Shown: in pieces, positions 356-56,661 of the stretch
How the letters are laid out: every line of letters begins with the position of its first letter
Numbering within the stretch: the stretch's first letter is position 1
Assembly: GCF_964204645.1 (NCBI RefSeq)
Contig: NC_134034.1
Location: 3,985,814-4,049,813, forward strand
DNA length: 64,000 nt
Direction of reading: 5' to 3'
From: Tubulanus polymorphus
Lineage: Eukaryota; Animalia; Nemertea
Made by a program: the position numbers and the translations under genes
Notes under the pieces: generated by a model
Seen by the model: the letters and a program-made list of their open reading frames with translations, nothing else
Database searches by the model: none
Told to the model about the DNA's origin: nothing

Positions 356-3300
356 GTAAACCAATAATAATCGACACGTTGAAGTTCTTGTACGACCTGG
401 ACATGGACGACGACAAGGAATTGGATTTGTCCGACCCGCTCGCCAGACCTCGGGTTCCGCACGAGTTCATATTCGTAGTCGGGGGATGGAGCGGGGGCAG
501 TCCTACGAACGCTATAGAAACGTACGACACAAGAGCCGACAGGTGGATCGCCTGTGAACAAGTCGACAGTAAGTATTTTGATAAGTTTAGAAAAATATTC
601 TGACGGCAAAAATTGTGAATATTATTCCAAGCGCATGCAACGTTGTTATATATACTCTATGCAATGATCGGTAAAAAAACCACACAGATCCTTTAGAGTT
701 TGGCCTGTTTATTTGAGATACGAGCTTGCGCTGATAATCACGTAAATGAGTAAATGAGCAAAGGATGGATTTAGGGGAACTGGTCCACATGAGCCCTGAT
801 AAGAGCCAGAAAAGGCCCTTTTTGTCCTGTATTTTTTGATGGCCACCAAAATTTTCAAGCTAATTGTAGCCTTCGCTCAGCCAAATCGGCCCTTTTCAAA
901 TTCATGTTCCCATTCAGGTCCAACCCCTTCTAAGAATACTAGATCGCCGGCATTGTGAGCTTCATCATTTAATCCGAAAAAGCTACTATACACTAGTAAC
1001 GAACGCTCGTATATCAATGTAATTACGTAATCACAAAATATAACAATAAAAATGAGTTGTAAATGTTTCCTCGAGCTCATATTTATTCGACGATTCCTAT
1101 AGTCATCTTCAGGAATAGGATGTAGTCAACGGGTATTATCGTTTGTAATTTACAAAGATTTTACCTGTTGTTTGTAAATATATATCTAAAGGGCTCAACA
1201 AAAATATGTTTTTTGAGGCATGTTATCAATTGTTTGTAGCGCCACGAGCGTACCACGGCACTGCCGCTGTACGGGGTATGGTGTATGTGGTTGGAGGCTT
1301 CGACGGCATGGATTATTTCAACAGCGTCAGGGCTTTCGATCCGTACAAAAAAGTCTGGACAGAAAAAGCGCCAATGCACTGTAAACGGTTAGTATAATAT
1401 TTGAAGTGTTTAAATACAAATCGGATCACTCAGTAGCTGATTGGTATTTTACTGTCTTACTAAAAGTGAAATCCTCGCTTACCACATGTGGATTCGTCAT
1501 GCTAACAGTAGTTTTCCTACTGTACACTAGTCCACCTGGTGGATCATCACTTGCCACAATTTGAATCCTCGATGTCCTACTGCGCACTAGTGACGCCTGG
1601 TGGATCATCACTTGCTATAAGTCATCCTCTATTGTTACAGTAGTTGATGTCCTACGGCGCACTAGTGACGCCTGGGAATCCTTACTTGCTATAAGATCCT
1701 CTGTTGTTACAGTAGTTTGTCCTACTGCGCACTAATGACATCTGGTGGATCCTTACTTGCTATAAGTTGCATCCTGAATTGCATCGGTTTGATGTCCTAC
1801 TGTACACTAGCGCACCTGACGGGTCCTCACTTGCCATAAGTGGATACATGCTCAAAAAGGATGGAAAAATCATGATATTATTGTTCTTACTTTGTCTATT
1901 GTAGATGTTATGTAAGCGTGGCGGTATTGAATGATCAGGTTTATGCTATGGGAGGGTTTAACGGTCACGTCAGACAGAACACGGCTGAGCGATACGCCCC
2001 TGACACCAATCAATGGTCTATGATCACTCCTATGAATATGCAACGAAGCGACGCAAGCGGAACTACTCATAACGGTAAATAATCCTCAGATTCACCGAGC
2101 GGAAACGATTGGACCGATTAAATTGAAAACTTCTGTCGATGATAAAAGATGCAGCGTCCATATTATGCCATGTTCTCTCTTCCTTCGGTTGTTTTTTTAC
2201 CAATTTCGTAAAACTTGAATACATTAGTCATATTTATTGCTTTGAAAAGATGGGGTGTTGTTCGACACAATTTGTGTCACCTAACATACTTACTTCAGTG
2301 TAGAAACAATACTAAACCGAGCCTGCGCACCGACAGGAGAACTTGAATCGGTGCCCGGGGACGCGGCATGAGAAGGGCTGCGCATTCCGGTAAACCCCAG
2401 GAAAGGGCGTGCGACAACACAATGACTCATTCGACGACCAGCGGAGAAGATTATGTCGTCTCAAAATCATCCAAATCATTACTTATCGTATTATCTATTT
2501 TCGTATCGTTCATATCAGGTCGGGTTTACATATGCGGCGGTTTCAACGGTCAGGAATGCATGAGTTCCGCCGAATACTACGATCCGGATACCGAACAGTG
2601 GACCCTGGTGGCATCGATGAGAAATCGCCGCAGCGGAGTCGGGGTGATCGCTCACGGGGAATACGTGTACGCCGTCGGTGGGTTTAACGGAATCACGCGT
2701 ATGAACACGGCGGAGAGATACAACCCGTCGACGAACACGTGGACCAGTATAACTGAAATGTATAATCCGCGGAGTAACTTCGCTATAGAGGTGAGCGTAA
2801 TCATCAGTAGGCTTTGAAAAACCCTTTCGTTGGGGATTAGAAAAAAAAAACGTCGGGGCTTGGGGATTTCGTCTTGCGATTTTTCGATTAAATTGAAATT
2901 GAAATTTATTTACACTCATCACCTCAACGTGAGGTATACAGAGGGCCATCAAGAAATATTTACAATTATAGAATATAAAATGAAATATAAAATAAGCAAT
3001 ACGATTTGAGAACACAACTTAAAAAAAAATTCCCAACACTGTCGGGACCTATCAGTTTGACTGTGAGACATCTCTAGAGCATCCGGAAAAGGTTATAGCA
3101 GCCAGTAGAGTGAATAAAGACTGTAATAAGATTTGAAATTCACTTTTCTTCGCTAGGTGTTTCGCAAAGCTTTCATGTTATTATCAATCTATTGCATGAG
3201 AAAAGCTTATAGAATATTTGATTTGAGTGTGAAAGAAATGAAAGCTTAGAAAATCGTATGAATCATAGGAAAATTCACTTTTCTTCTCTCGATGTTTGCT

Positions 3301-33900: not shown

Positions 33901-33985
33901 GTATGTGGGAAAGTGGAGCTCTTGAACAGGTCAATAGTTTCGAAATTTGGAACATTTCAAGTATATTTTCCGTGAGTTAACGTAT

Positions 33986-34096
33986 TATTAAATTACACAG
34001 ATGACAGTTTCACTAGAGTACATCACACTTTTCATCGACGAGCACACGGGCCTTAGAGCGTCGCTGGAAAAAAAAAACGGAATTCGTCTGCATTAG
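33986..34096 (+). promoter_or_regulatory. Putative TATA box and non-coding exon 1 of paralog A (equivalent 45688-45802 for paralog B)
   Basis: TATTAAA (33986) and TATAAA (45688) at homologous positions, then a conserved ATG-less block ending in donors AG|gtaagt (34096/34097) and AG|gtgagt (45802/45803). Confidence 0.5.
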
Positions 34097-34364
34097 GTAA
34101 GTATCATACAGACATGTAAGGCGCGATACCGAAAGAGTATGCTACATTTTAGAGGTAAATGAAAAAGAAAGGATGATCGAAAAGTTATTTTTCGAAATGG
34201 TACACCGATACGATTCCCGTGTAGAATTTCATACTCAGTTGGTTGAGTTAGATTTAAGTGACGAAAGAAAACACCATTGTTAAATTAGGCCTACTAGATG
34301 TCATTGATGGGCTGTATATACTTATACATGGTGTAACTGTTGTTTCTGTTGTAACTCAGTTTTG

Positions 34365-34530
34365 CTGAAGATGACTATTAGAATATAGTCGAAACGTTGA
34401 ATAAATAACTAGCTCAAGGAATACATTATTCCTGATAATTTCTATTAGAAAATAGTCGGAATGTCGAATAAACTACTAGCTCAAGGAATACAGTATTCCT
34501 GGAGATGTCTCTTGGAATATAGTCGCAGCT
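34365..34530 (+). ncRNA. Short array (~3 units) of minimal hammerhead-ribozyme-like repeats
   Basis: First unit CTGAAGA-T-GACTAT-tagaat-ATAGTC-GAAAC-GTT-GAATA; later units degenerate. Same family as 46340-47105 but opposite orientation. Confidence 0.55.
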
Positions 34531-34650
34531 CTAGGAAACATTTATGTATATTTATCTTTTCGTGAATTTTTTTACTGACCGCGGATGACGTCAATTTCGA
34601 TGATAGGAACATTTTGATGTCGTCACGTTTGTTACATTGCAGTTGTCAAG

Positions 34651-37600
34651 ATGAAGAAAATCATCGTCGGTATATTCACATATTGTATCGTAGTAATATC
34701 AGTGATCGGGCCCCTGGCTCCAGGAGGTAAGAAAGCCATATATTCTAAAGGGAACCTTCTAATGACTTATGTGGAAATTCAACGGAAATTTGCAAAATGA
34801 GCGCTATTCATTTCAATTACCGTCGGTATCAAAAGCAAGTTCACGTCATTGGCCCGGCTCATAAACGAAACATTCGCGCCTATCGTTTTCAAGGGGTTCG
34901 GGGGTCTTCCCGGTGGGTTTTTTCACAAATGATTGCATTCCGATGACTCAGTCAACTGTGAATGAAATCTCAAACGATTTTTTTCGATGTCAGCTGTCGG
35001 CTGACATGACCTCATAACTGAATTTCCAATAGATGGCGGACTAGTCAAACCTGGCTGCTAGACTTTATCAGCACACTTTATCAGCTTTTGATAGAGATGT
35101 CTTACAGTCGTTTGAATGTACTAGGGCTCACGGCGAGCCTTAGCAGTGTATGATTTCAATAAGAATCAACTATATGTAAAGCCTGAGCGGAATTATGTCC
35201 ATGTCTTGTTTATTCTAAGTGACAAATATATGAAATATTCTAACATTCAATATGTCCGTCAATTAGCTAACCGAAATAGTAAAACATGAATAGAATATAA
35301 AATGCTTATTCTGAGAGCTTAGCTGACGAGTCCGCATATCCGTTTGTAAAAGCCTACGAGAAAGTATAAATCTTATAGATATCTGAGATATCATAACAAA
35401 TGATACACATTCTGTATTGCAAGGCAATATTGGCAATTCGGGACAAGGAGAAGAACTCGTTTTCCTGGCCGACAGAGGAACTGGTGATAATGTTTTCAAG
35501 AAATGGACTCAAACAGCGAAGAATATTGTAACTGAAGATACGTCTTGCGCGTGCGCCTGGAGACAAGAAATTAGCGTCCCCTGCCTCAACTGTACTTGGA
35601 AAAGTAATAAGATTGATGCGTGGCCATCCGGCATCAATGAGGTAGGACTATACGTGTACGTGTAAAAAGAGGCGAAGTTCCAATTGAATTGGAATTTTAA
35701 GACCTCGAATATCGGGTTTTAAAAGGCTTAAAGGATCAGCTGGTAGAATACCCAAGTCACACGGGAGGCTACCTATCGGTCTTCAGTTAACGTTGAACTC
35801 ATTGAACGTGCATGGTACGGCTGCGTACAACGCCCGTTGTCGCTGCTTTGCAGCTATATTGATTTGTTTTCCGTTCTACTTTGAAGTCAAATTACGAATC
35901 CAACAATAAATGAGTTATGAATTCTCAGATCACCAGCACGTTTCGTGCCATTCACCACATCAGGGTCGAATCCCAGCAATGCTGCACACTTTAATCTTTT
36001 GTAATTGCTTTATTCCAATGCATGCCACGGCGATGCAAATAACCCGAAATCGCTGCCTGGCTGATGTATTTTAAACTTTTTTTCAAAGGACGTTGATAGA
36101 AAATACTATTTGCACCCCTCCCCCATCGTTTCTTCAGAGAAAAACCTGGATGAGAAACCAGGGGCGGATCAAGGCGGTGCATTTGACTGCATTCCTCAAA
36201 ATCATTGCTCAATGATATGGCGGCGGCGAAGCTCATTAAAGGGTGGCTTGGGGTTCCTCTCCGAGAAAAATTTCATTGTATTAAAAAAGGCATTCTGGAC
36301 CTGTTAGATTTGGTACTTCTAGTAAAAAGTAAATACATTTTTCTGACTATATTCTGAAATACAGTGGAATATAGCTTGGATCCGCCCCTGGAAAATGGGG
36401 TATTTCTTTGCGTGACCTCATAAAGATTGAATTATTGAATAATAATATAATTCCAACCTCTCCGCCTCCCAACAAGGTCGATGTTCGAACCTAATCGCAT
36501 TGGAATCTAGTGGTCAAATACCCTTAGTCTTATCGACCAGGTGAATGCAGTATCAATGCGTATGACGTTTCGGATCCGTGGAGTTACATTCCGAAGCGGC
36601 CTTTTAAAGCTAGAAATAGGGACCTTCGAGCTGCCTGGCTGATGTATTTTAAACTTTTTTTCAAAGGACGTTGATAGAAAATACTATTTGCACCCCTCCC
36701 CCATCGTTTCTTCAGAGAAAAACCTGGATGAGAAACCAGGGGCGGATCAAGGCGGTGCATTTGACTGCATTCCTCAAAATCATTGCTCAATGATATGGCG
36801 GCGGCGAAGCTCATTAAAGGGTGGCTTGGGGTTCCTCTCCGAGAAAAATTTCATTGTATTAAAAAAGGCATTCTGGACCTGTTAGATTTGGTACTTCTAG
36901 TAAAAAGTAAATACATTTTTCTGACTATATTCTGAAATACAGTGGAATATAGCTTGGATCCGCCCCTGGAAACTGGGGTATTTCTTTGCGTGACCTCATA
37001 AAGATTGAATTATTGAATAATAATATAATTCCAACCTCTCCGCCTCCCAACAAGGTCGATGTTCGAACCTAATCGCATTGGAATCTAGTGGTCAAATACC
37101 CTTAGTCTTATCGACCAGGTGAATGCAGTATCAATGCGTATGACGTTTCGGATCCGTGGAGTTACATTCCGAAGCGGCCTTTTAAAGCTAGAAATAGGGA
37201 CCTTCGAGCTTCATATCAATTGTACCTATACGTGCATGATGGCCCGGCCATATACATGATAGGTCAGCTTCAGTTAAACCGGCTCCGCATTCATCCGCAT
37301 TTTCACCCTAAATCTGGGCCAACAGATGCGGGTTAAGTTGAATGAATTCATAGTAAACTTCGTGTAAGTCGGATCGGTGAAAGTTGGATAATCGCTTTTA
37401 TCGGACGAATATTGATGGTCCCTTCTCTTCTTCAAAGAAATTCATATTCCAAAGTCGGATTTCATAAGTCTGAAACTCGCCTATCTCGCGGTACTTTTCT
37501 TGGTACCAAAAATAAAAGATCAGTTGAATTTTCTCACCGAAAATCGCAGGGCTATTTTCATCGCAGTGCAGTTTGATTTCTTCCCTATTCCGACCCATGT

Positions 37601-39704
37601 TCACGGCTTATAATCGGCGTGGTTGCCAATCAGCCGTTATGTCAGGTGGTTAGTGTATATTATATTAGAATAGTTGAATAAACGAAAAATCACTTCATGT
37701 AGATGTTGATTTATTTTTTCCGTCTTTAGAAATTAATTGACAAATCGTAGCTTTCGGAAAAGAAAGGCTAGAAATCCGACTTAATAATAATAATAATAAT
37801 ATTATTTCTTACATACCGCGCTCCGCATACATCTCAGCGCGGTTTACAAATATAAGAGGCTATAAAACAATTAAGAACAGTCAATTAAAATATTGCCTAA
37901 AATGAAAAGTTTTCAGCTGCAGGATCTTATTCTAAAAGGTAAAGCATTCCATAAGATTGGATCTGCTGAGGCAAAGCCGCGGTGACGGTAAAATTGGGTG
38001 TTAAAATAAATGAGACAGAATATAGCAAAATTGTGTTTGTGGAATGTAGGGATCTGGTAGGAGTATATAATGACGTGATTAGATCACAAATGTAACTTGG
38101 TGCCAAATCATTCAATACTTTAAAAACCATGAGCAGAACTTTGAAATCAATGTGTTTAGCGACTGGAAGCCAGTGTAGCTCAGCATGTATTGGAGTAATC
38201 GAATCAACCCTTTTTGATCTTGTGACAAGTCGGGCAGCGGAGTTTTGGATAAGCTGCAACTTTTTTATATTGTACTGACTTGTACCAGGGAAGTGTGATC
38301 ACACTTCCCTGCTTGTACCAAGTAACAGACTATTGCAGTAATCAAGTCTAGAAGTTATAAAACAAGGAACTAATCTTTCCGTGATTCGATTATTTAAAAA
38401 ATGTCTAATTTTGCCCATTTTGTAAAGCCCAAATGAAGCTGTCTTGCATACTTGTTTTACATGGTGATCCATGGTCATATTGATGTCAAAATAAGCACCC
38501 AGATTCCGTACCACGTACAACTTATTCAAAGTTTTTCTAAGTTTGAGGATTTTGCTTGGTTGTTGTTCAGACCTGACTTCCGCAAGGTTTTCTGTAGGCC
38601 AAGTATGTACTAACATGCACGGTGGTTAGGTGGTCAATTTTGTTGTATTGAATCGGTATCGTCCGTTTGATAAAATGAACATAAACTACTTTTCTGAAGG
38701 TAAAAGTGGTATTGTATGCCGCGTGTAAAGAAGTGGTTTACATCCGATTCAATGGAACAGGAACTACTAGTATGGACTGGTTCAACGTTACTAAAATTCT
38801 CAGCAGTTCATGGACTGACCTAACATCGCAGACTTCTATAAGCGCTGCACAAAAGCCAATTTTCAGCGTAACGGGACAGTAAGTAGAGCCTCGATTTGTA
38901 AAAATTGCCACATTGCATGAAAAGGCACACATTTTAGGCAAAAAATGATACACTGCATGTCCTAATCGGCTGGGCCTTTTTGTAAACTGCAATAACATTT
39001 GTAATAATAATCAGTTCATTTTTCAACTATCGGGCCTAATGGATAACTTATTCATGATTCATAAGGTTCGTAGAGTAAAAACGGGTTAGGAATAAATAAC
39101 GAGACGAGTAGTCATGTGTATAGGTTAACTATTTATTTGACGCTCGAGCTTTCGCTACTAATGTATAGTAGCTTCATTAGGCGAATGAGTAAATGATGTG
39201 AATGAGCTAATCAAATAGATAGTTAACCTTTACAGTACTACTCGTCTTGTTATTTTATTCTTGATGTAATAAGTAATGTACACGACAGATAGGCGGCCGG
39301 TCAACTATCTACCTCAACAGAAACGAAAAACAAGGTATCGATTTTCTATTCTTCTCAGCGCAAATGCAGGTATGGCTAGACGTTTCTTCGCAATAAAGAG
39401 TTACGGTAGCTGTGGTACTGACTGGATATGGCTGTTAGCAATAGACATATCAAGCGGAGCGGGAGGTTGCCACTATGATAAGAGGAAAGGCAAACCGTAC
39501 TTCCTGTATTCTGCCGACAAGACGGTTATGCGTAGGTTACTTTCTTATCATTCGCGCCGACTTCAATAACGACGTATCTATTCATCATACGTTTAATACA
39601 ACGATAATTTCATATTTCGTCTTTCAGTTGATGGAGGCCTTTCTACTGCCGATACATTGGCTATTTACGTCAAATATGCAGCAGTCAGTGGTAATAATCC
39701 TTGA
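34651..39704 (+). CDS. Uncharacterised secreted Cys/Trp-rich protein, paralog A, 240 aa; exons 34651-34726, 35424-35641, 38700-38878, 39359-39531, 39628-39704
   Basis: Five GT-AG exons in frame (723 nt), with the same splice sites and phases as paralog B: MKKIIVGIFTYCIVVISVIG..EELVFLADRGTGDNVFKKW..WKSNKIDAWPSGINE|VKVVLY..YIRFNGTGTTSMDWF..SSWTDL..FSVTGH..RRFFAIKSYGSC..PYFLYS..ADTLAIYVK. Confidence 0.85.
36052..37210. repeat. Near-perfect 578-bp tandem duplication within an intron of paralog A
   Basis: 36052-36629 equals 36630-37207 with only one difference noticed (gaaaatgggg/gaaactgggg); 3-bp GCT microhomology at the junction. Confidence 0.92.
36159..36390. mobile_element. hAT-like MITE (duplicated at 36737-36968)
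   Basis: TIRs CAGGGGCGGATC..GATCCGCCCCTG; absent from the paralogous intron (~49375); related ends at ~26163 and ~52115-52129. No clean 8-bp TSD. Confidence 0.6.
37783..38515 (-). mobile_element. 5'-truncated L2-clade LINE fragment (ORF2 C-terminus, frameshifted)
   Basis: VRNLGAYFD..MDHHVKQVCK..ITSRLDYCNSLL and LQLIQNSAARLVT..LHWLPV..IDFKVLLMVFK..LAPSYI; (ATT)n tail at 37783-37800. Confidence 0.85.
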
Positions 39705-39974
39705 TTCGTTTTCATCGTCTGCAATATGGAAAAACCATACGTCGGTATATATTAGTTGCAACCAGTTTTCGGCTGTCGAATCATATCTATTATACATGTA
39801 TATGCCGTGTGCTTACGGATCAAAACCTAACGTAAACCTAACTCGCTTTTAGATACACCGACCTTTGACTGTCGACAAGATCAACACATATACCCGTCAA
39901 AACTTAATTTCAAACTTCAAAAAATATATTTATCCCTCAAAACTACGTACATAATATTATCCCCGTCAAAACAT

Positions 39975-40180
39975 CCATTTTCTTTTTTAAACATCCTCAA
40001 CTCGCTAAGCGATACGCAGGACATTATAAGCAGGTGCCATGTTTCTTTTTTCCCAATGGGGGAGAGACCAGAAAAGAACCTTCGACCTAGAAACTTTGTC
40101 GCCACCAGGGTTTGAACCCATAAACCCTGTATTGACGAGACCAGTGACCGGTGGTTTAAAACACTCGGCCACTGCGCCTC
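39975..40180 (-). mobile_element. tRNA-derived SINE, second copy
   Basis: Reverse complement matches 22055-22230; absent from the paralogous region near 52320. Confidence 0.8.
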
Positions 40181-42066
40181 TCCTAAAAACATCCAAAATA
40201 TTCGACGTGGCAAATCCGATAGTTGCTGATATACTGTCTGAACTAACATCAGGTGTTGTCAAAAATTAAACTTTTTGATGTTTCATTTTTCATTTTAACA
40301 TTTTGCCATATCGAGTTTCGATTAAAATTATACCTTTGCTGTATTAAACCGCTTATTGTAAGTTATTAAAGATTGTTACTATACTGGTATTGCCCTCCTG
40401 TTCGGTTGATATCCACGGCGTCAGGTGATTTTCCATGGTTATCGCTGGACCGGAAGTCGTTATACGGTCCCGTATACCAAACTATTCCACACGTGTTTGT
40501 GATAGATTTTCACGCTGAGATGTCCCCCTGTTACATTAACGGAGATTGATTCAGCGGGATGAATTAATGGGGGGGGGGGGGGGGGTCAGGGATCAGGACC
40601 CCTGCCTTCCCACTGAAGTTGCCTTTTTAGTCAAAGCTTGGCCTAACCATGGTAAGTTGACACTAATCCTCTCGGAAAATTGGTTATTTTCGGATGGATT
40701 CGCATAACATCTAACACCGAGGGAGGGACATCTTGCAAAACCCTTAGACATGGCTGCTTTATCCAACAAATGCCTTTCCGATTCTCCTGGACCCTTTCAG
40801 TTTTTTTTTCTGGACCCGCCTCTTTTATATATCAATTTCAGAAGTATACGTCGTAACTTTCGGAAGTATTCGTGTTTGGCGTCTCGGAGGATGTCACCGA
40901 AATCTGCCGGTATAGGGCTTTATCGCAGATTATCAGGTATTTAAAGCCACGCGCTAAAAAAGCACGAATAACCAACGAATATAGTGCTAGCACGTCTACA
41001 ATATACGCGCAAGCACAATTCGGTACACTTCCGGCACGTGTGGCGGGTAATCTCTGCAGAATTAAACTTTTTTTGTGGGCGTTAACATCGGGGATGAAAA
41101 ATAAGTTTTGAAATTCGGCAATTTTCATTGAAAGGGAGAAGATTCGATGTAGTAATCAAGTCTTTCATGCTATCTAGTAAATAGGTATCGAAACGTTACT
41201 AAACTAACAATAATTAATTGATTTTGATTACATTGCTCTAGTAACAACATTCTCAAATCTTAAGCGATGCTTTTAGCCTAGTCGATGGAATTTCCTTAAC
41301 CTAATCAAAATTACAATGAAAATCGCGCAAAAGAAATCTATTCCTTTTTGCGCCGCGGCGTTGTAGGCTGTCGTATGAAACGTCATTGGGAAAACAGGTA
41401 AAACCCGGAACGTATCCGTATATGTGCACATACAACCAAAACCGTCAACCCTGTTAATACTACTCACCGAAACAACGATTTATTTCCATGGCTGGTTTGA
41501 AAACATAAAATCGAATGGAAAATAATTCAATTTCGTGAAAAAAACGGTCGGTCGAAAAAACATGAAATTGAAAGAAAATGATTCAAATCCGTGAGAAAAG
41601 TCGGAAATAAATCGACGCCGGTGGGAAATCTTTTTTTGTAAGATTCGAATTTTTGATTTTTGACACCACGCGCGCTGAAATATTTGGCACCTTCGTATCG
41701 GCAATATCACTTCATAGAAGTTCGATCAATTGCGCTTGCGCCGTAAATCGCTTGCCTCGGGGAGGATTCATTATTACGCGAATGATAAATCGAAATAGAC
41801 TTTACGTACGTTTATACTCAGCAAATAATCCATCTCATAATCACACAGACCTTATACACCAGCGAATTTTGATTCGTCACGACAAAAAGGTCTAGTGAAG
41901 ACGTAGTGATCGGCAAATCGTTAGTGATGGGCTTTGATAAACGGATAGGCCTAATAGCATTTGTAGAAAGTATTGCTCGTAGGAAAGGCCTATGGCTTGC
42001 GTCAAGCCAAGGTCGAATATTATGTTTTTTGTTAATTCAAAAAAAAAAATCAAATAAGTCTTTATA

Positions 42067-42288
42067 AGGCTAAACAAAAATGATACCTTGTTTCTCCGCA
42101 GCGGCCGGGTAATTTTTGTAAAATATTATAAAATTTGTAACCAGTTCATTTCTATGGCGGCCGGGTCTGTTATGGTAAAATTGATCATGATTTATAAAAA
42201 CGTAATGTATAGGGTACATAGGCGGCCGGCCGGGTCAACTTTTAACCTTAGCAGAGCGGAGAAGCAAGGTATCAATTTTTTTCAGCCT
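42067..42288. mobile_element. MITE with ~33-bp TIRs
   Basis: aggctaaacaaaaatgataccttgtttctccgc / gcggagaagcaaggtatcaatttttttcagcct, with TA on both flanks; one-ended relatives near 39290-39345 and 51320-51388. Confidence 0.7.
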
Positions 42289-43579
42289 TAGATAAGAAAG
42301 ATCACAAAAGTATAATGCATGACATACCAAGAACTACACGGCACATCCTAGGAATTTCGTTTTAACAGATATGACGACAAAACATATGCACACCTTAGAG
42401 AGTTTATGAAAATAAAGCATATGGTACCATTTGGAAGAATTAGATATCATCGCTGATATTAAGCTGTTTGTGACACAATGAGGATGTTAGTATCGTGATC
42501 TGGGTGACCATGTACGTAAAAGTAATTGACATTGTTGTTTGAAGCCCAAGTCAAAAGGTAAGCAGAGTCGGATCGCGTACTAATATTCCTTTCCCGTCTG
42601 TCAATGCAATGGACCCGTTGATGAAAGAAACAACCGGTGGTAATAGAGTGAGAAACGATATTCTTATTAGTACTAATCATTTCGTACCATTTCGTAGTAA
42701 ACCCCTGACTGAACTGAAAAATCCCGTTTTCGTCGGAGCAACCGAGCAATTTCCTGGAAAAAAAAAGAAATCAAGAATTAATTCAATTTCAATTTGCTCG
42801 GATGTTGATCTCAAAGAGGTTGATAACTTGACGGATTATTGCTATTTTCCCCTCCTATTTTGTCAAATGGAATAGGTCAGACAGATGTCTTTTTTTGCTC
42901 TTACTCTGGAAACCTGGAGCTATTCTCTCCCTGATCGAAGTTGTTTGAAAAAGGCCTGAGTAAAATTGCATCCCGACTAGTACGTATCGAAAATCGTAGT
43001 ACATGTACTGGCTTTGCAGAAAACCCGTTATTGCGGCTTTGCAGCTATATTTTAAGATGTAATTTAATTCACCCAAGTGCGAAGAAATGCCGTTTTTATA
43101 GAATGGAATACCAAAACTTCTGTAGATACATCTCGAACACGTTTCAAATCTTTTAAATACCCTTTAACACAATCTGTTTAAGGACATTTTTTCTGAAACG
43201 GTTAAGGTTATTAAATCACAACCGTGAATTTTACCTTGTACCGTCGTTTCGTGTCCTATCAGGACACTTTATCAAAGCTTAATGACGTTGTCATTATTGG
43301 CCACCAGCTGGCGTGGTGGTCAACAGCTCGGCTCAGTGATAATTGCACCTACGTTTTCTCTACTCGAAAAGTTGGAGAAATTATACGCGCGCCGAGTTTC
43401 AAGTATTTGGTCGATAGCTCTTTAGTTTTTATTGAAGGAAATCTTGATTTGTCTGGCGTCAGTTTCTAGAAAAAGCGACACACGCGTATAGAAGCATAAA
43501 CCTTCACATTAGAGATATATTTATGTCCTAATAAATTGAATAGCATTCATTGACAGTGTTATTTACCAACGATGGATAA

Positions 43580-44110: not shown

Positions 44111-45173
44111 CGCCCTCTTTTGAATCTTTTCAATTTTTACAATTCTTACAATAAACCGAATTTATTAAACATTATCCCAAAATGTCATTCGGGTATCATC
44201 GACAGGTTCGTAAATATCTCCGGCAGATCGGTCACAAATTCATCGAGTATTCTTGAATTCGATAAAAGACAGCTCGTCGAAAATGCCTTGATGCTTTTTT
44301 CGGTTCGGAATTTCCTTTCGGATGTAATAAGCGTGGCATTTCGGAGCCGCGTGTTAGGTCTCAAGTGGGACTCGAACGTATATTTTGTTGTATGATTCCT
44401 GATGTATGATTGGGGGTGAAATCATTCTACGTGAGGACAGATCCGAGGAGGCGAATTATTTTCGGACAAAGTAATGCGAAAATATCGCACTGGAAAACCT
44501 TTTATTGGAATCATAACCTTGTACAAAAAATGGTGCCATTTTTTTTTCTATAGATATTGTGCTTTTCAGATTTTTTTCGACGGCATTTTGACCTTCTCGA
44601 CGTTAAGCGGGCTTTAAATACGGTAAACGGAGCGCTGATAATGTCGATGGTCCTCGAGAAGCGTCGTTGTGTCGGTGAAGTGTGTGTGGTTTTTACTCGA
44701 CGGCCTCATAAACAGACAAACACAATTAAGTGATTTTTTACGGATCCTAATCGTCGACAATTTCCCAGCGATATTGTATCCGTCAGAAATAAATATCAAT
44801 ATTTCACTCCCATTGATGTTTTCTTACTTTTTCAAATACCATTAAACGTCATTACTATAGTATAATTTCGATAGTTTTTATATATACCTGTTACTAGTCA
44901 AAAGTAGTTTCATCGTCATATGTAATATGGTAGTTGCATCTTAGTTATTCTACAAGTAATGGGTCCATACTATAGCCATGCTGCTGTGGCAATTGAGGAT
45001 CCGATACGTGTCGCTAGTGTGAAGTCAGCCATATTGAGCAGGCAATGTAATACGCGATATTCTATAATCTGGCGTCATTATTTTTCCTCGCTGCGGGTAC
45101 GTTCGTAGCCAGAACTTTGAAGGAGAAGTATAAACTTTCAGGCTCCTCGGCACATCAGTCTCCATAAAAACTG

Positions 45174-45307
45174 GGGCCAGTTGCATAGTCGCGGCTTAGA
45201 CTTAAGACCTAAGACCAACTTGGTCCTATAGCCAATCTAACAACTTAAAACCAGTCTTAAGATTTGAGACCACTTTTGGACTTAAGTCACGACTGTGCAA
45301 CTGGGCC
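45174..45307. mobile_element. Harbinger-type MITE
   Basis: Same family as 3329-3610; CTG/CAG flanks. Confidence 0.75.
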
Positions 45308-46339
45308 CAGAGCTAAAAACGATCCTCCCTCGGCAGGGAGTCGAACCTGATGGCATCGCTACACTCAGCCACGGCACGAACCCCTGCCACAGTAGACCGG
45401 GTGCGCAGGTACATGCGCAGGTTACACGCACGAAAACTTGCGGCACCAATCAGATTGCTCGTTGTATAATCGCCGAGGTAAATTTCACGGAAGAACTATA
45501 AATGGGAAAACCCGGGCTAAAATAAAAGAAATTGCCAATTATCGTAATTTCTACACTGGTAGAAAGTATTGTAAATATTTACGGAAAACACATTTTCGAT
45601 CTGTGGGAAAGTGGAGCTCTTGAACAGGTCAAGAGTTATATTGAACATTTCGAAATATTGAACATTTCAAGTATATTCTTCGCGAACTATAAATGTACAC
45701 AGGAGACGAAAGTTTCACTAGATTACATCACACGTTTCCATCGACGAGCACACGGGCCTTAGCGCGTCTACAGTAAACAAAAACGGAATTTGGCCGCGGA
45801 AGGTGAGTACCATGCAGACATATAAGGTGCGATACCAAAAGAGTATGCATTATTAAGGAAGTAAATACACAAGAAAAGATAATCGAAAAGTTCTTTTTCG
45901 AAATGAAGATTCGAAGAGTTGCCGAGTTAACCGGGTTTAGAATAAATAACGAAACGAGTAAGGGGTTAGCTTCTTATTTGACGCACAAGCTTTCGCTACT
46001 AATGCCGTATATAGAAGCTTCATCGGATAAATGCTGGACCCGATGAAGCTTCTATGCATTAGGAGCGAAAGCTCGTGCGTCGAATGAATAGTGAAACTAT
46101 ATAGTACTACTCGTCTCGTTATTTTTTCGAAATGGTCAACCGATCCCCGTGTAAAATGTCATACTCAGTTGGTTGAGTTAGATTTAAGAGATGGTTTAGG
46201 ACAACGCAGTGTAATTCCTAACGCATAAACTAGCATTAGTACTAAAAAAGACCGTAGCAGGGAACGGAAATAGTCAGGGAGCCAAACCCGAGAATCTCAC
46301 TATGACGTCGAAAATCAAAGTCCGAAAATGTTTGCTCGA

Positions 46340-47105
46340 GCTATGGTAGTCTATTCGACTATATTCTAAAAGTCATCTTCAGCTTGAGCTAGTATCTTAT
46401 TCAACGTTTCGACTAATATCCTAATAGTCATCTTCAGGAATACTGTATTCATTGAGCTAGAAGTTTATTCAACGTTTCGACTTTATTCTAGTAGACATCT
46501 TCAGGAATACTGTATTCCTTGAACTATTAGTTCATTCAACGTTTCGACTATATTCTAGTAGACATCTTCAGAAATACTGTAGTCCTTGAGCTAGTAGTTT
46601 ATTCGACGTCTCGACTTCATTCTAATAGTCTCTTCAGGAATACTGTATTCCTTGAGCTAGTAGTTTATTCGACGTTTCGACTATATTCTAGTAGACATCT
46701 TCAGGAATACTGTATTCCTTGAGCTAGTAGTTTATTCAACGTTTCGACTATATTCTAGTAGACATCTTCAGGAATACTGTATTCCTTGAGCTAGTAGTTT
46801 ATTCGACGTCTCGACTTCATTCTAATAGTCTCTTCAGGAATACTGTATTCCTTGAGCTAGTAGTTTATTCGACGTCTCGACTTCATTCTAATAGTCTCTT
46901 CAGGAATACTGTATTCCTTGAGCTAGTAGTTTATTCGACGTCTCGACTTCATTCTAATAGTCATCTTCAGGAATACTGTATTCCTTGAGCTGGTAGTTTA
47001 TTCGACGTCTCGACTTCGTTCTAATAGTCATCTTCAGGAATACTGTATTCCTTGAGCTAGTAGTCTATTCGACGTTTCGACTTCATTCTAATAGTCTCTT
47101 CAGGC
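46340..47105 (-). ncRNA. Tandem array of ~12 x 66-67 bp units, each resembling a minimal type I hammerhead ribozyme
   Basis: Minus-strand consensus UAUUC-CUGAAGA-(U)-GACUAU-loop-AUAGUC-GAAAC-GUC/GUU-GAAUA. Twelve TCTTCAG cores on the plus strand at ~46376, 46431, 46498, 46565, 46631, 46698, 46765, 46831, 46897, 46964, 47031 and 47097. The repeat is certain; ribozyme activity is inferred. Confidence 0.7.
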
Positions 47106-47375
47106 ATACCGAGTTACACTCGTCTCTTTCTGTCTAATACTACTGATTCAAAATCATATTTTTATTCTCAATTGTATCATTCAATCACCCCCTTGCTTCC
47201 CTTTAACATGTTTTTTATTCAATTCAATTCAATTCAAAGGTTTGTTGCTCAACAAAAGACATTTTTGCGCAGAGCAGATTAATACAAAAAAAATTTTTTA
47301 CTGACCTCAGTTGACGTAAATGTCGGTAAAAGGAATCCCTCGATGACGTCGTTTGTTACATTTTCAGTTGTCAAG

Positions 47376-50300
47376 ATGAAGAAAATCATCGTCGGCTTAT
47401 TCACATATTGTATCGTAGTAATAATACCAGTGACCCGGCCCCAGGATCCAGAAGGTAAAAGAGCCATATATTCTTAACCAAACCTTCTAATGACTTAAGT
47501 GGAAATAAGCAAAACGAGTGCTATATGTTTCAATTACTGTCGATGTCACAAGCGAGATCACACTGGCCCGGCTCATAAACGAAAAAATTCGCACCTATTA
47601 TTTCAAGAGGTTCGGGGTCTTCCCCGGGATTCATAACTTTATTTCCAATGGATGGCAGACTAGCCCTTTAACTGGCAATCGGTCGCTAGCGACCGATTTG
47701 AATAGACCATAGTATAGCATTGATATAGTGAATAGAATAGTCAAGTATTGATTTCAGTGAAGCATTCTAACTCATTTTCCTATCAGCAGATGGCGACACC
47801 AGACGGCCTACAATGTCTAACAAGGCAGGAAAGTGATATTTCATACATTTGGCATGTAGAAGGGGGTATGGAAACCACGTGACACGTGGGTCAGATTTCC
47901 AAAATTGAGAATATCGTTAGTAGTAATGGCCAATGCACTAAAGACGTTCTCTAGTGAGTTTGGCTGATCTTTTGGACATAGTAATGAAAGATTCTGATGA
48001 TAATTCATATTAGGATGAATCTCATGACAGTTTTTTATTATGGGTGGCCCAAAAAATCTGGATGACCTTGGGATCTGTGACCTTGGAGTCAGACCCTGAA
48101 GGTAACACCCAAAGTTCGCAAACATGGTATCATTTGAAAGCTTGTGAAAAGAGCTTTCATAAAATACATAAAGTATGGGGTTATCCCACATATCTTTTGA
48201 GTTATTAAATTTTCCCCTTGCAAGGTCCAAAATCTCTTTACGCTTAAGAGATATCTTGCAGTCGTCTGAATATACTCCTATTGAAAGCGAGCCCGAGCAG
48301 TGAAAGATTTCGATTAAAACAGCAGAAGCTTGAGCGGAATACGGTTTAACCGGTCCCACTCCGACGAAGTCTAATTATTGCTTTTTTGTTTATATCTATG
48401 TTTTGTTTATCTTAATTAAATAACACATTTATAAGAGATTCTAGCATTATGTCCGTCAATTAACTAACCGAAACTAGGAAGAATCGACGTATAGATTGCT
48501 GTCTCACGTGCTTGATATTCGATTGTGTTGCCGTGTAGAAAAGTGTTAGGTAGAATTCGTTTTGCAAAGAAAATAACGAACACTTATTCAAATATGTGAT
48601 ATGAAATGATTTAATCAGAGTAAAACAGAAATAGAATATAAAAATGCTATTTCTGAGAGCTTAACGTAGCTGACGAGTACGCGTATCCGTTTGTAAAAGC
48701 CTACTAACGAGAAAGGGTTGATATTAGTTCCATTCTATGAGAAGTCATGAGAAAAATGTAGACTCATTCTGATTTAAGGCAATATTGGCGATTCGGGACA
48801 AGGAGAAGAACTCGTTTTCTTGGCCGACAGGGGAACTGGTGATAATGTTTTCATGAAATGGACTCAAACAGCGAATAATATTGTATCTGAAGATACGTCT
48901 TGCGCGTGCGCCTGGAGACAAGAAATTGGAGTTCCCTGCGTCAACTGTACTTGGAAAAGTAATAAGATTGATACATGGCCACCCGGCATCAATGAGGTAG
49001 GACCACATCGAATGTGTATGGTGCGGCTGAGCAGAACGCCCGTTACTTTGCAGCTATATTGATTTTTCATTCTATATATTTGATTTTCTATTCTACATTT
49101 ATCAAACTCAAATTACGAATCCCACAATAAATGAGTTATGAATTTTCTAGATCACCAATACGTTTCGCGCCATTCACCACATCAGTGTCCAATCCCAGCA
49201 ATGCTGCACGATGATTTTCTCTAATTGCCCAATTCCAATGCATACCACGGCGGCGCAGATAGCGAAATCGTTGCTTGGCTGATGCATTTTGAACTTTCTT
49301 CCAAGGACGTTGATAGAAAAAAGAATTTACACCCCTCTCCTACGTCGTTTCTTCGGAGAAAACCCTGGATGAGAAAAGGTTGACTTATTGAATGATTAAA
49401 ATTCCAACCTCTCCGTCTTTCAACACGGCCGAAGTTCAAACCTAATCGCATTGGAATCTATTAGTGGCCAATACCCGTTTTATCGACCTGGTGTATGCAG
49501 TATCAATGCGTAAGACAAATGTTGCCAGTCTCTGTCGGATCCGTGGTGTTTCATTCCGAAGTGGCCTTTATAGCTTGAGTAGCTAGAAAGAGGATTGGAA
49601 GCTGCATACCAATGCTACCTTCGCGTGTGATGGTTAAATCCGGGCTTAATAAACGACTCCTATTCATCCGCGTTTTCGCTAATCTGTACCGGGCCGACAG
49701 TTGCGATTAACCGAAGTTGAATGAATATAAAACCATGTTAATCGCTTATATCGGATGAACATCGATGATCCCGATTTTTCCTTCTCTTCTTCAAAGAATA
49801 TCGATATTCCAAAATCGGATTCTATCTAAGTCGGACACTCGCCTGTTCCGTAGTACATTTCTCAGTACCGAAATAAAAATCAATTAGAATACTTCAACGA
49901 AAGTCGGAGGGCTTTTCTTCCAAGTGCAGTTTGATTTCTTCCCTGTTCCTGGCTTGATATCGACTACATGGCAACAGAAGTTTTTCTCGTTGAGGTTTAG
50001 TGTATAAGAATAGAAAGATAAACAGGTCGTTTTCGAATCATTTCGTTTAGATGTTGATTTAGTTTATCCATCTACAGAATCTAATTCTCAAGTCGTAATG
50101 TCAAGAAAAAGACTGGAAATCTGGCTTGTTCAATTTCGGCCTTTTTGTAAGTCAGAGCATTATTTCTTGGTCCCAAAATATCTGACTTACGGAAGGTTTA
50201 TTGTGGGCATGCATGGCGGTTAGGTGGTCGATATCTTCGTAGTATATTGACTCGGTATCGTCGCTTTGATAAATGAATACAAAATGCTTTTCTGAAGGTA

Positions 50301-51732
50301 AAAGTGGTATTGTATGCCGGGTGTAAAGAAGTGGCTTACATTCGATTCGATGGGACAGGAACTACTAGTATGGACTGGTTCGACGTTACTAGAATTACTA
50401 GCAGTTCATGGACTGACCTGACATCGCAGACTTCTATAAATGGTGGGGAAAAGCGGTATTTCAGCGTAACGGGACAGTAAGTAGAGCCATGAAATGTGAT
50501 TCGTCGTATAAAATTTGCCATATTGAAAAACACATATGTTATGCCAAAAAAAATGATAGGTCGTTTCTCAAAATCGGCTGGGTCATTTTGTAAATTGTCA
50601 TAAGATTTGTAGTCAGTTCATATCTACGGCTGGCGGGTCAGTCGAAGTTAACCTGATCACGAATTTAAAGCAAATGATTGGTCACAAATTTGATATCAGA
50701 CAGAAAAAAATGGATAAATCTATTGACGAACATTTTAATCTTCCGAACCACACTTAATCAGTAACTTAAGTGACGGCGTACATAAAATTAACACTTCTGA
50801 TAACCATTCGCACGAAATAATTAATTTAACGCGGTGATTATGTTAATCATTGACTTAATCGAGATCTAGGATTCATGTCCCACTACAGAACGTAATTCAG
50901 TTTGTTATATCCGGATGTATCCCGCGGACTTCCAGTTTTTTGTAATTCGTTGCTCTTTGTTTATTTTACTTCGATATAGTTTCACTTTGATGATTCATTT
51001 CTCTTTGATTTATCTTAGTTTAATTTATTTATAATCCTTCTCACTCAGGGCCCAGTTTCACAAAAAGGATTAAGGCTTCAATCGATTTAAGATAAACTGA
51101 ATCAACGAAGGAATTGAATCGATTTAAGAGTTAAACTTTTTTGTGAAACTGGGCCCAGTTCTGCATAATTTGTGTCAGTTTGTGCCTCATGAATACTGTT
51201 GTTTTTCCACTGACTATACTCATTCACCTGATCAAGCTTCTATACGTTTTCAGCGAAAGCTCGTGCATCAAATAAAATAGTTAACCTACTACTCGTCTCG
51301 GAAAGTAATGAACACAGTAGATAGGCGGCCGGCCGGGTGACTTTTAAGCTCAGCACAAATTTGAAACAAGGTATCAGTTTTTTTAGCCATAAAGCCTTAC
51401 TCTTTTCAGTAAAACTGAAACGGTCGATCGACGTTTCTTCGCAATAAAGAGTTACAGAAGATGTAAGGACATGATGTGGATAGCAGTTATGAACTCATAT
51501 TCCCCACCGAGAGGCTGCGACTTTGATGAAAGGAAAGGCGCACCGTACTTCCTGTATTCCGCCGATAAAACGGTTATGCGTAGGTTATTTGCTCATTCGC
51601 TCCGACTTTAGTAACGTATCTGTTCATACGTGTCAATACAAAAATAATTTCACATTTCATCTTTCAGTTGGTGAAAGCCTTTCAACTGCCGATACATTTG
51701 CTATTTACATCAAGTACGCAGCAGGGAGATGA
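47376..51732 (+). CDS. Uncharacterised secreted Cys/Trp-rich protein, paralog B, 236 aa; exons 47376-47454, 48779-48996, 50298-50476, 51410-51579, 51668-51732
   Basis: Five GT-AG exons in frame (711 nt); indels against paralog A are multiples of 3. MKKIIVGLFTYCIVVIIPVTRP..VKVVLYAGCKEVAYIRFDGTG..RRFFAIKSYRRC..ADTFAIYIKYAAGR*. Confidence 0.85.
51049..51155. mobile_element. Harbinger-type MITE
   Basis: Perfect TIR GGCCCAGTTTCACAAAA..TTTTGTGAAACTGGGCC; CAG duplicated at 51046-51048 and 51156-51158. Confidence 0.8.
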
Positions 51733-54700
51733 GTAGCATGCATCTACGAGTTTTTATATCTCTCTGAAATAGGGAAAAATCATATAATATAATATAATAA
51801 TGGCATAACGGCATAGCCCTTTAAGGCCGACGGCCGCGAGTGAGTACTCAACGACAATAGAAATGTTTTGAAATTTTTAGAAGAATTTGGTGAGATTTCC
51901 ACGAACTAGAATTCATTCATGAAATCCATGAAATTAATCATAAATACACAATACAACAATCACAATACGTACTATTGTATATTCATCATTTTGCATTAGA
52001 AGAACATTACTTCTGTTTGTTTTGTATTAACCTCAATTGAGAAAATGTCACTTAGGATTTCTTTTCGAGGACCTTAGAATTTAGGAGGGGGGTCCGGACC
52101 CCCTTGGACCCCCTCTAAATCCGCCCCTGATAATCAGTATCTAATCAATATCTATATATGCATCGGCTGTAGAGTTAAATCTGTTAAGAGTGGTTACGGG
52201 CCATCGAAGTAAATCTAACTGACCATTTTAAAATTCAACCTATAATAGTCGACAAGATGAAAAAAAAAAATTATCTGTCTAATCTAAAACTTCAAAAAAA
52301 GTATTTTCCCACCAAACCATACATAATATCCTCGCCAAAACATCAAACTCACGACAAATTCAATAGTTGCTGATGTACTGTCGGAACAAAATATATTCAT
52401 CAGATGCTGTCAAAAATGAAAGTTTTTGCTGGTTCATTTTAATATTTTGCAATATCGGGTATCGTCTAAAATCACACCTTCGCTGTTTGTTGTAGGTTAT
52501 CAAAGATTGTATCTGTACTGGTATTACCCTCGGTATTTAACAATGTTCTGTTCGGTTAATATCCACGTCATTGGTTACTGTTGGACCGGAAGTCGTTATA
52601 CGGTCCAGTATACCAAACTATTCCTGCACGTGTTTGTGATTTTATTTTTCATGTTGAGATGTTCCCTTCGCATTTCTACATAAGCTTAGATTGATTCAGC
52701 AGGAGCGGATTTAGCAATTGGTCGCGGGGATCAGAACCTCTGCCATTGAGGTTGCACTCCTTGTCAAGACTTTGTAAAACCCTGCGAAGTCGACACTCAT
52801 TCTCGCAAAAAAGATTGCTTTACTTCGGATTCTTCATAAATATCTAACACCGAGAAGGTACATCTTAAGTGCATTTGACATGGCTGCATTATTACAAGAA
52901 GCACCCTATTTTCTTAACCATCGAAGAACCAGTATGTCCGTGTTGTGACGATAAATAAAGAATCCCACAATACGCCCCAAAATGGATACTACTATATCAC
53001 ATTATGATCATTTACTGATTGGAAGTTTCGACTATAACATTTAAAGTCATCATCAACAATACTGAGATAAACAAAATATGGTGTCCCAGAAAATGGTTCC
53101 TCCAAAATGATTTGATATTTACCAGTTTATCTATTTTAGTAAATAAATATGTGTGATGTTTTAGTAACCAGTAGGATTTATTCTTTACATATTAAGGATA
53201 ATGGGTCATGTAGACTATGCCCGGCTGTTTTTCAAATACTAATTATGATTTTACTTCAGAAATAAACTTGATAAATGAAGTTACTAATGATGGCATTAAG
53301 GGCAGGTATTCGTTTGCAAAAGAAATTTCCATTTTCGGGATATTGAATTAAGTGATACATGATTATGTTGTTAATCGTTTAACAAAGGTTTTTTTGATAA
53401 TTATAATAATAACTTCATTTACATAATGCATGTCTCCAAACTAGAGTCTATTCAAGTGCGCGCCAAACTTAGTATTATTACCCCAATAACACCTTCAAAT
53501 TTTTGAGTCTCGAATCGACTGAGTAAGGTTACATTTAATATTCCTGCATTATTAAGCCGTCTTTCATACTATCATCACATATCGATTTTACGAATACAAG
53601 AACATCTTTGACGGATAAAGATTTGTTTGTTTGTTTGGATTAACGTCGCTTAAATCTCGGTTTCCAAAGACTAACCCCATTGGATTATTCATTGTATATC
53701 AAATTTATATTGTATATCAAATAACAAATGAAAGCCAAATATGGTAGGATTGTCCCTGTTATTTATTTGGTTGGTAAATTTCGTTTGATTTTTTGATTGA
53801 GTGTCCCTTACAGGCCACCACACCTGCCGGGAGCGAAACAGGGGGTTTGATTTTGGAAATCGAAGTACAGATATAGTTGTGTGATCGGCGCACGAGTTTA
53901 CAGAATTTTGTTTAAATCGAAGTACATAATTGGGATATTCGGTTCCGGTTCACTCGACAATTAATCTTCCAACCAGTCTGAACCGGCAAGCGACGAGTGG
54001 GGGTCAATTTTTCGGCTGCCTGATTTAATACATCGAAATTTTGGAAATTGCTATATTACAAGGTTGAAGATCATTTTGTCCATTTTTATATCTTTTGGTC
54101 GTTTTCTACGTGTAACAGTCCGATAGTCTACTGCAGTTTTTTCGGGTAGATGTTGATGTAGAAATCCTGTAAGTTGATTGCCCCGAGTGTTGATTGAAAG
54201 GATGGACATTTTGAAACGCGAATCATCCAGATGAGAGTATGGCCCTGGTATCCGCAGTTGTATGACATCGACGGTGCAGCTTCGATAAGGATGGGTTTCT
54301 CCGTCAAGGGGTGTGCAGTTTGTACTTCACAATATCCCGTGCTGAGTTTGTCTAAAAGAACAAGTTTTACACGGGGAGCAGTTAATAATGTTATAAAGTA
54401 TGTAATGTATAATAAAGAAAAGAAACCATATAAGACCAAGAAAACCATATAACGTAGGCAAAATACATATTTTGCCTTTGCACTGTTTATTGATTTCTAA
54501 TTCGTCTAGTCACTCAAAATGTTTATTTGGATCGCCCCGCTTACTCTGTTGTATTTTCAAATAAATGCCGTTCTCGCTTTGTGGTCACTCTAATGACTCA
54601 TTTCGCTCAGCCGATCACATACATGTACTCTAGTAGCGAAAGCTTATGGGTGACAATTCCCTTAAAAAATCACTGAGCCATTTTGACGGTATACTATGAC

Positions 54701-55685: not shown

Positions 55686-56661
55686 GTATCACAAGTGAAT
55701 AGGAAAATCCTGATGAAGTATTAAACGTCTGAGTGCCATGAGTTTATCGAATAAATTTTCTAATTCTTTTTCACCGACATTGTGCTGCGTTTAGACGAAG
55801 GAAGTTTTCCGTTCTCTAAACAGAAAAACGAATGACCGTGAATAAAAGTCTTTTCGCCGCAAAAACACCGACAAGAATTTCATCACAGACACCAAAAAGT
55901 GATATCATCAAAACGGGGGAAAACAGTTTACGCTTTCGACAAAATTTATACAACAATCATAATTTAAATGGTTTGCGGTTTTCGGAATGTTGTTTTCTTT
56001 GGATAAAATCATTCGGATTTATGGCCATGGCTGTGTAGCCTAACCATTTTATTTCATTCCATTTCATACTCGTATATACAAGACTAACAGACGAACAACG
56101 GTCTGAAACTACCGAACAAAGGATGCGAAAATCCATAACGCATTTCACTGCCTGTAAATTAAACGAAATATATATCAAAGCTAAAAGTTTCTACAGCGTC
56201 AGTTTCACAAAAAGCCAATTTGCGCCGCGCGTTCTGCTGAATGAAACTAGATTAAATTAGCGAACAAAAGCCGTGCACGAATGCCTCGGTATCAAAGGCT
56301 GCAGTTCCATTTTAGATAATTTCTTCATAGAGAAAAGTTCACAAGTTTAGAAACTTTGTCAGCGAATTCGTTACCAGGTTCGACAACAGACTATAGTACT
56401 CAGTACCGAAGATTTAAGTTTTGCCTGCTGTTTCTCGAGTAAGATTTTCGCTATAGCCGTTTATTTTATACCTAAAAATAAATATTCTTTACAGAACATC
56501 TGCGATATTTTCAAACATACGATTTTGAATTATCTGATTAACAAATCGCGTCTGTGATTGGCGCTAAAAGTTACGCGGAATGGGATGATTATTATTTTTT
56601 TTAGATGTAGTCTCGCATTTAATGTTTGTGTTCTTTTTTCGATATGATCGTCTTCGACGAC

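Follow-up and report, generated by a model that had tools for sequence, protein, structure and literature searches.

Minimal type I hammerhead ribozymes of Penelope-like elements can be recognised by four marks: helix I is short, a base intervenes between positions 9 and 10.1, G10.1 pairs with C11.1 and the segment 15.2-16.2 is palindromic (Cervera and De la Pena, PMC4209133); and their role in these elements has been called a mystery (PMC7761336). Penelope itself is recognised by an end that is fixed but may carry a tail and by neighbouring copies in inverted orientation, according to the available text of PMC8557442. For the Poseidon element PAc of Anolis, the accessible part of Frangieh et al. 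2024 (PMC11167929) describes an ORF that starts at stem II, reverse transcription that begins internally downstream of the hammerhead, a demonstrated tail downstream of the hammerhead, and a ribozyme that cuts only with protein and whose cleavage is dispensable for insertion in vitro. Tandem repeats with a type I hammerhead per unit are known as non-LTR retrozymes; Li, Clavereau and Pollet (2026, bioRxiv 10.64898/2026.07.22.740005) report units of 51-972 bp from a mostly vertebrate sample and a model in which pLTR-derived units are amplified locally. The circRNA retrozymes of coral, mussel and axolotl (Cervera and de la Pena 2020, PMC7229834) are described as low-GC tandem copies with 170-400-nt units, mostly canonical type I ribozymes and demonstrated, highly self-paired circles.

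The window, by which we mean the whole 64-kb stretch of DNA analysed here, contains a period-67 array at 46383-47109 (10.9 copies, 92% matches by TRF). On its minus strand CUGAAGA occurs 12 times, each occurrence being taken as the start of a unit; units 1-10 are 66-67 nt long, unit 11 is 55 nt long, and unit 12 is a partial terminal unit without GAAACGUC. Tandem minimal hammerheads with a 66-67-nt monomer had been proposed in an initial annotation of this DNA, and the array is present in the span given there (46340..47105), although the whole element, which we call copy a, reaches further, to about 46320-47118. Its parts are as follows.

46320..47118, minus strand: whole element, copy a, with leader, 11 hammerhead units, coreless terminal unit and tail (TRF, sequence)
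47104..47118, minus strand: 5' leader (TGTAACTC...), outside the repeat unit and common to copies a and b (sequence, loose contig ends)
47038..47103, minus strand: unit 1, GAAAC, no extra U, stem II of 4 bp, one mismatch in stem I (sequence; weak RF00163 match)
47036..47052, minus strand: predicted junction hairpin AGGAAUA/UAUUCCU, first of 10 junctions (sequence; 7 bp, -5.8 kcal/mol)
46772..47037, minus strand: units 2-5, GAGAC (A14G), dead in the enzyme half but intact in the cleavage-site half (sequence; PMC4889925)
46638..46771, minus strand: units 6-7, GAAAC, U.U at the second stem II pair (sequence)
46572..46637, minus strand: unit 8, GAGAC (A14G), two differences from units 4 and 5 (sequence)
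46438..46571, minus strand: units 9-10, GAAAC, stem II mismatched (sequence)
46383..46437, minus strand: unit 11, sole complete minimal hammerhead, with a substitution that weakens the upstream junction hairpin (descriptor, folding)
46332..46382, minus strand: unit 12, terminal, without GAAACGUC (sequence)
46320..46331, minus strand: 3' tail ACATTTTCGGAC, outside the repeat unit and common to the family (loose contig ends)

The core CUGANGA ... GAAA ... UH, in type I order, is found in six of the 11 full units. These six (1, 6, 7, 9, 10 and 11) have GAAAC, and the other five (2, 3, 4, 5 and 8) carry GAGAC, equivalent to A14G, a change reported to abolish hammerhead cleavage (PMC4889925). All 11 units retain the cleavage-site half, with GUC as cleavage triplet in seven and GUU in four. 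Stem I has 5 bp in 10 units and one mismatch in unit 1, and every unit has both the palindrome ACGU (positions 15.2-16.2; no helix III loop) and the G10.1-C11.1 pair. The initial annotation had given the same 6:5 split of GAAAC and GAGAC, the GUC/GUU triplet, the 5-bp stem I and ACGU as helix III. It had also called the stem II hairpin GACUA/UAGUC imperfect in some units, which is correct but too generous, as the stem is perfect in unit 11 alone (1/11). Units 1-5 and 8 have a 4-bp stem II, units 6, 7, 9 and 10 have a U.U mismatch at the second pair, and at least four contiguous pairs are found in 7/11 units. An extra unpaired U between A9 and G10.1, absent from the earlier description, is present in 7/11 units. 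All four marks set out in the available text of PMC4209133 are thus present in copy a, which supports the earlier reading of the units as Penelope-type minimal type I hammerheads.

A strict hammerhead descriptor has one match in the 64-kb window, unit 11 of copy a, and none in 12 Mb of random sequence matched to the window in dinucleotide composition. No two adjacent units of copy a pass this descriptor, which is our own and not one of the rnabob models of Li et al.; judged by it, copy a fails the test of two consecutive complete motifs that the available text of that study uses for 'active' arrays. Hammerhead type I models run with Infernal or RNAmotif had been put forward as a check in the initial annotation, and RF00163 of Rfam does align to unit 1, with 16.2 bits (E 7.3), which is below the gathering score of 34. 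Copy a is confirmed as a genuine, largely decayed tandem row of Penelope-type minimal type I hammerheads.

Copy a resembles the hammerheads of Penelope-like elements in its core, short helix I, extra base between 9 and 10.1, G10.1-C11.1 pair, palindrome in place of helix III and high copy number. It differs from them in a helix II of 4-6 bp rather than 7-8, in motifs set back to back at 67 nt, in a junction hairpin directed against stem I and in that no flanking Penelope ORF was found; a hammerhead family of the D. willistoni Penelope-like element also forms a large tandem repeat, up to 85 x 450 bp. With non-LTR retrozymes it shares tandem units that carry a type I hammerhead and lack an ORF. 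Its unit length is short but within the published 51-972 bp range and no record, and the description 'unusually small' in the initial annotation does not hold against that range. Copy a lies antisense in a predicted intron of an invertebrate-type host, whereas the sample of Li et al., as described, is mostly vertebrate. Low GC, tandem copies and a type I hammerhead are common to copy a and the retrozymes of PMC7229834, as far as that source describes them, but copy a has 67-nt, minimal and mostly mutated units and is known here from DNA alone. Like PAc, the family has an AUG at the start of stem II (here CUGAAG-AUG-AC), and its insertions end, with an optional tail, shortly downstream of the hammerhead. 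PAc is described as autonomous with an open ORF (PMC11167929), whereas the frame of the core AUG in the array's family closes within 5-21 codons: after five codons in unit 6 of copy a and unit 1 of copy b, with 21 open codons in unit 11 of copy a and 12 in copy d.

The window holds three further copies of the family, b, c and d, all of which have the extra U between A9 and G10.1. Copies a and b occupy the same place of a ~12-kb tandem gene duplication in opposite orientation. These copies and the predicted introns around a and b are listed here.

34350..34543, plus strand: copy b, with leader, two full units and a partial one, and a short tail; core broken in units 2 and 3 (sequence)
1061..1117, minus strand: copy c, single terminal-type unit without GAAACGUC, short tail (nhmmer E 5e-6; sequence)
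53016..53064, minus strand: copy d, one diverged unit in which stem I closes with G-C instead of C-G and C3 is changed (nhmmer E 0.006; sequence)
45803..47367, plus strand: predicted 5'-UTR intron around copy a, which lies antisense in it; start codon ATG at 47376 (exons, GT donors and AG acceptors conserved in both paralogues)
34097-34642, plus strand: paralogous predicted intron that holds copy b in sense, ATG at 34651 (same conserved signals)

As a control for copy d (E 0.006), the best nhmmer match in the reversed window has an E value of 0.18. GAAACGUC is absent from each of the window's three 3'-terminal units. Copies a and b have a common leader (TGTAACTC) and a common start of the tail, both outside the 67-nt unit, and the tail is long in copy a and short in copies b and c.

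We compared the family with contigs from three runs of unrecorded kind (X1, X2 and X3), which come from one study and are not independent; X1 may be the source sample. Copy b is matched by 1354 X1 contigs, with a summed contig depth of ~586,000 over the core and 32.5 over the flank, values that give no copy number, as overlapping short contigs inflate them. With unit 1 as reference, the head-to-tail junction has a depth of ~345,000 in X1 and ~24,000 in X3; its summed contig depth, ~10,000-fold, is likewise not a copy number. That the family consists mostly of monomers and that the tandem junction is a local accident was a candidate reading, which the family-wide depth of this junction overturns. 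The unit exits at one and the same place, through the tail (ACATTT...), into other DNA in 106+37 contigs of X1, 24 of X2 and 31 of X3; with unit 1 as reference, loose ends of the tail are seen in 54 and 15 contigs. More than 100 distinct 3' ends provide a firmer floor for the abundance of the family. Loose ends of the leader fall at 47096 in 25 (X1) and 12 (X3) contigs with an agreement of 0.61-0.66, and 4 of the 15 joints listed, out of 32, switch strand. The flank at 47110-47205 has zero contig cover in X1 and X3, a gap to which we attach no meaning because a filter drops records. The repeat family, of which the array is one copy, is non-coding and abundant.

No variant of 5% or more is listed in the core of the first unit of copy b (CUGAAGA, GAAAC), in a table that misses changes near contig ends. 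Where the second unit of copy b deviates, most other copies have an intact core (56-100% by depth at six positions). The majority core of the family thus looks intact, and the decay seen in copy a need not hold for the family as a whole. Stem changes within the family comprise one double change (copy d) and one-sided changes to G-U (unit 9; a 2% variant).

The ends of the family resemble those of Penelope derivatives, as contig joints show a fixed 3' end, an optional tail and inverted adjacent copies. No RT or GIY-YIG domain of Pfam was detected in 144 ORFs of the window (142 of the 165 with at least 72 aa, plus two exons), and family-specific scans of genome and viral contigs as well as nhmmer comparisons found no Penelope element that carries the family's terminal sequence; a Penelope parent is therefore an indirect conclusion. 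We consider it likely that the family derives from the terminal repeat of a Penelope-like retrotransposon.

To place the motif class more broadly, we scanned metagenome contigs for the same core and obtained at least 119 loci, with 121 matches among those listed. The 115 listed matches with sufficient flank fall into 38 greedy clusters, which are not all independent. At the first four positions of stem I, 100 of 152 pairs form in these clusters, compared with 72.0 +/- 5.1 when 5' and 3' strands are swapped among them (0 of 10,000 shuffles reached the observed value). A pairing stem I in other families with the same core supports the motif class, though not the activity of the array's family. 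Beyond the core, none of the listed metagenome matches belongs to the array's family (best nhmmer E 6e-4, core only), and none of the at least 119 listed loci is a hammerhead-bearing tandem repeat. The core pattern has no match in viral contigs, and family-specific patterns have none in genome or viral contigs. Among 17 of the 26 long ORFs of the listed loci, Pfam identifies one RVT_1 domain (locus L038), unclassed, on the opposite strand and ~2.4 kb away. A second group of minimal hammerheads, in which ACGUGU replaces ACGU before the cleavage base and stem I is G+C-rich, accounts for 18 of the 38 clusters among the matches listed (L003, L014, L071, L080, L099, L102 and other loci).

Within copy a, two unit types alternate in blocks. 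The differences between units, at 0-12 positions, follow a pattern: units 4 and 5 have the same sequence, units 5-7 resemble units 8-10 (distances of 2, 3 and 4), and the lowest mean distance between units (3.7) occurs at a lag of three, from few comparisons. The A14G change is common to five units, so dead units have been copied, which points to expansion at the DNA level; judging from these patterns, the array has probably grown as ordinary DNA.

The initial annotation had cautioned that a hairpin competes with stem I, and this concern is real. The predicted junction hairpin (7 bp, -5.8 kcal/mol) takes up the 5' strand of stem I together with C3 and U4 and is intact at 8 of the 10 junctions of copy a. 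A double hammerhead of adjacent units is predicted to lie 24-36 kcal/mol above the ensemble, and a single core formed across one junction is 9-14 kcal/mol uphill at nine junctions and 2.6 kcal/mol at junction 10/11. For two-strand homodimers with 20-nt flanks the gap is 22-34 kcal/mol in units 1-10 and 12.3 in unit 11, compared with a median of 6.4 (range 3.3-34.1) in a reference set from the largest metagenome family among the matches listed, for which we took those members with a perfect stem I (43 of 67). With short flanks the gap falls to 6-10 kcal/mol in units 2-5, 8 and 11 and remains at 16-24 in units 1, 6, 7, 9 and 10. The active fold is predicted to be blocked by the junction hairpin. 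It should be noted that these energies are nearest-neighbour predictions that ignore Mg2+, tertiary contacts and proteins; the block may be lifted in vivo, since the PAc hammerhead is reported to cut only with protein (PMC11167929). The most plausible cleavage site in these models is the GUU of unit 10 (cut after 46471), served by the core of unit 11.

The host gene of copy a is predicted on the plus strand, with a first coding exon that resembles a signal peptide. The sense copy b is short, and damage affects stem I in its unit 1 and the core in its units 2 and 3, whereas the long copy a is antisense. This contrast fits selection against cutting the host transcript, although two cases prove nothing. 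The 88-nt flank upstream of copy b has no homology to either flank of copy a in either orientation. Synonymous changes between the paralogous exons are few (3/73 and 3/59 codons), and with such low divergence the dating leaves room for a single ancestral insertion of a and b, followed by inversion, as an alternative to two independent insertions.

Taking these results together, we favour, with a probability of about 0.68, the reading that the array comes from a family of minimal hammerheads likely derived from a Penelope terminal repeat, that borrowed Penelope proteins probably inserted it as a leader-(unit)n-tail piece, that it then probably expanded as DNA, and that it is predicted to be mostly unable to cut. 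The motif, its decay, the common ends and the abundance of the family are direct observations. Derivation from the Penelope class is indicated by the four marks of PMC4209133 and by the same core with a pairing stem I in other families. Insertion of the Penelope type is suggested by the strand-switching joints, which resemble the inverted Penelope insertions described in PMC8557442, and by the precedent of PAc, with a tail past the hammerhead and insertion without ribozyme cleavage (PMC11167929). The large homodimer gaps, in unit 11 as well as in units 1-10, agree with the prediction that most units cannot cut. A tailed multimeric RNA would be reverse-transcribed from its tail by a Penelope RT/endonuclease acting in trans, and slippage or unequal crossing-over would then add units regardless of function. 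Should the minus strand be transcribed, the junction hairpin would form first and block most cores, and any cutting would be most plausible at the GUU of unit 10 with the core of unit 11. As a 67-nt circle cannot template leader and tail, we infer a mobile form of the type leader-(unit)n-tail, which is the likely spreading template instead of such a circle.

Alternatively, the family could be an active mini-retrozyme, whose multimers self-cleave into 66-67-nt monomers that circularise and are returned to arrays by rolling-circle reverse transcription. The family-wide tandem junction, the seemingly intact majority core and the cleavage-site half kept in all 11 units are compatible with this cycle, the junction hairpin could even keep a finished circle uncut, and the working definition of a tandem non-LTR retrozyme in the available text of Li et al. 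would cover the family. Yet leader and tail cannot stem from a monomer circle, the three terminal units in the window all lack GAAACGUC, and no adjacent pair of units passes the descriptor. The predicted circles (4 of the 10 possible ones were folded) are weakly folded, with -3.7 to -10.1 kcal/mol, 60-69% of bases paired and z-scores of -0.2 to -2.9, and of nine dimers predicted for Xenopus only one was cleaved in vitro (bioRxiv 10.64898/2026.07.22.740005). We therefore regard this cycle as unlikely. The earlier proposal that copy a is a source of ~67-nt linear or circular RNAs is likewise weak: the unit includes neither leader nor tail, the descriptor rejects 10 of the 11 full units, the active fold would cost a predicted 9-14 kcal/mol relative to the best fold at 9 of 10 junctions, and the predicted host gene runs antisense to the array. 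Copy a is probably a mostly silent element.

A related and speculative idea, to which we give little credence, is that the 67-nt unit is a self-locking ribozyme: the head-to-tail hairpin would switch the hammerheads off, the family would have spread as uncut multimers to hundreds of loci or more, and a Penelope protein or chaperone could unlock 67-nt RNAs. If true, the released RNAs would be near the lower size limit of retrozymes, and the unit would be a direct test of whether mobilisation is favoured or impeded by Penelope-type hammerheads. In any case the array, which is otherwise a repeat of known kind, offers a small natural series of test cases, with A14G-dead units, units damaged in stem II, one complete unit, and junctions with and without the blocking hairpin.

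Internal tandem arrays with fixed ends are typical of some invertebrate non-autonomous DNA elements. Spread as DNA, by a Helitron-like or MITE-like element or by satellite dispersal with a captured dead Penelope hammerhead as passenger, would agree with the two ends common to copies a and b and with the 144 window ORFs, where no RT was found. Inspection by eye of the ends of copies a and b, however, revealed neither a terminal inverted repeat nor a target duplication, the tail differs in length between copies, and the strand-switching joints match Penelope insertions as described in PMC8557442, which makes such a passenger improbable. An ordinary minisatellite that resembles a hammerhead by chance, or an assembly artefact, would account for the sub-threshold Rfam match and for the array being unspanned by any contig, but is very improbable given the absence of descriptor matches in 12 Mb of random sequence, the identical core with different pairing stems in other families among the listed metagenome matches, the patterned differences between units (0-12 positions) and the abundance of unit and junction in sequencing contigs; a chance resemblance of the motif is already largely refuted.

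The gene content of the window is that of an animal, with Kelch, histone H1, astacin-MAM, rhodopsin-type and LDLa-LRR GPCR genes (Pfam). The tandem duplication around copies a and b (32492-42290 / 44296-52892) comprises a multi-exon plus-strand gene with a probably secreted product and no Pfam match. Exon identity is 88-94%, and non-synonymous codon changes outnumber synonymous ones (8 vs 3 and 12 vs 3); identity in the aligned non-coding blocks is 68-86%. The first paralogue contains a 581-bp direct duplication of 99.8% identity (36052-37210), which arose very recently or else is an assembly artefact. Together with copy a, its intron contains a MITE-like palindromic insertion of ~230 bp with duplicated TTTTTCGAAATG flanks (about 45907-46140), which has relatives at 39079-39191 and 51217-51300.

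Other repeats in the window include nested inverted repeats of 70-220 bp (8464-9454), partly duplicated at 16273-17443, and inverted 8-bp microsatellites (GACAAACC / TTTGTCGG) at 30529-30583 and 30786-30983 around a 50-bp repeat. The minus strand carries two paralogues of a linker histone H1 gene (12356-14405 and 17462-19221), both apparently interrupted by an intron, with Pfam profile positions 1-20 in a separate ORF. At 56623-63062, long and nearly intronless ORFs with CUB, LDLa, LRR and 7TM domains encode what we take to be a GRL101-like receptor.
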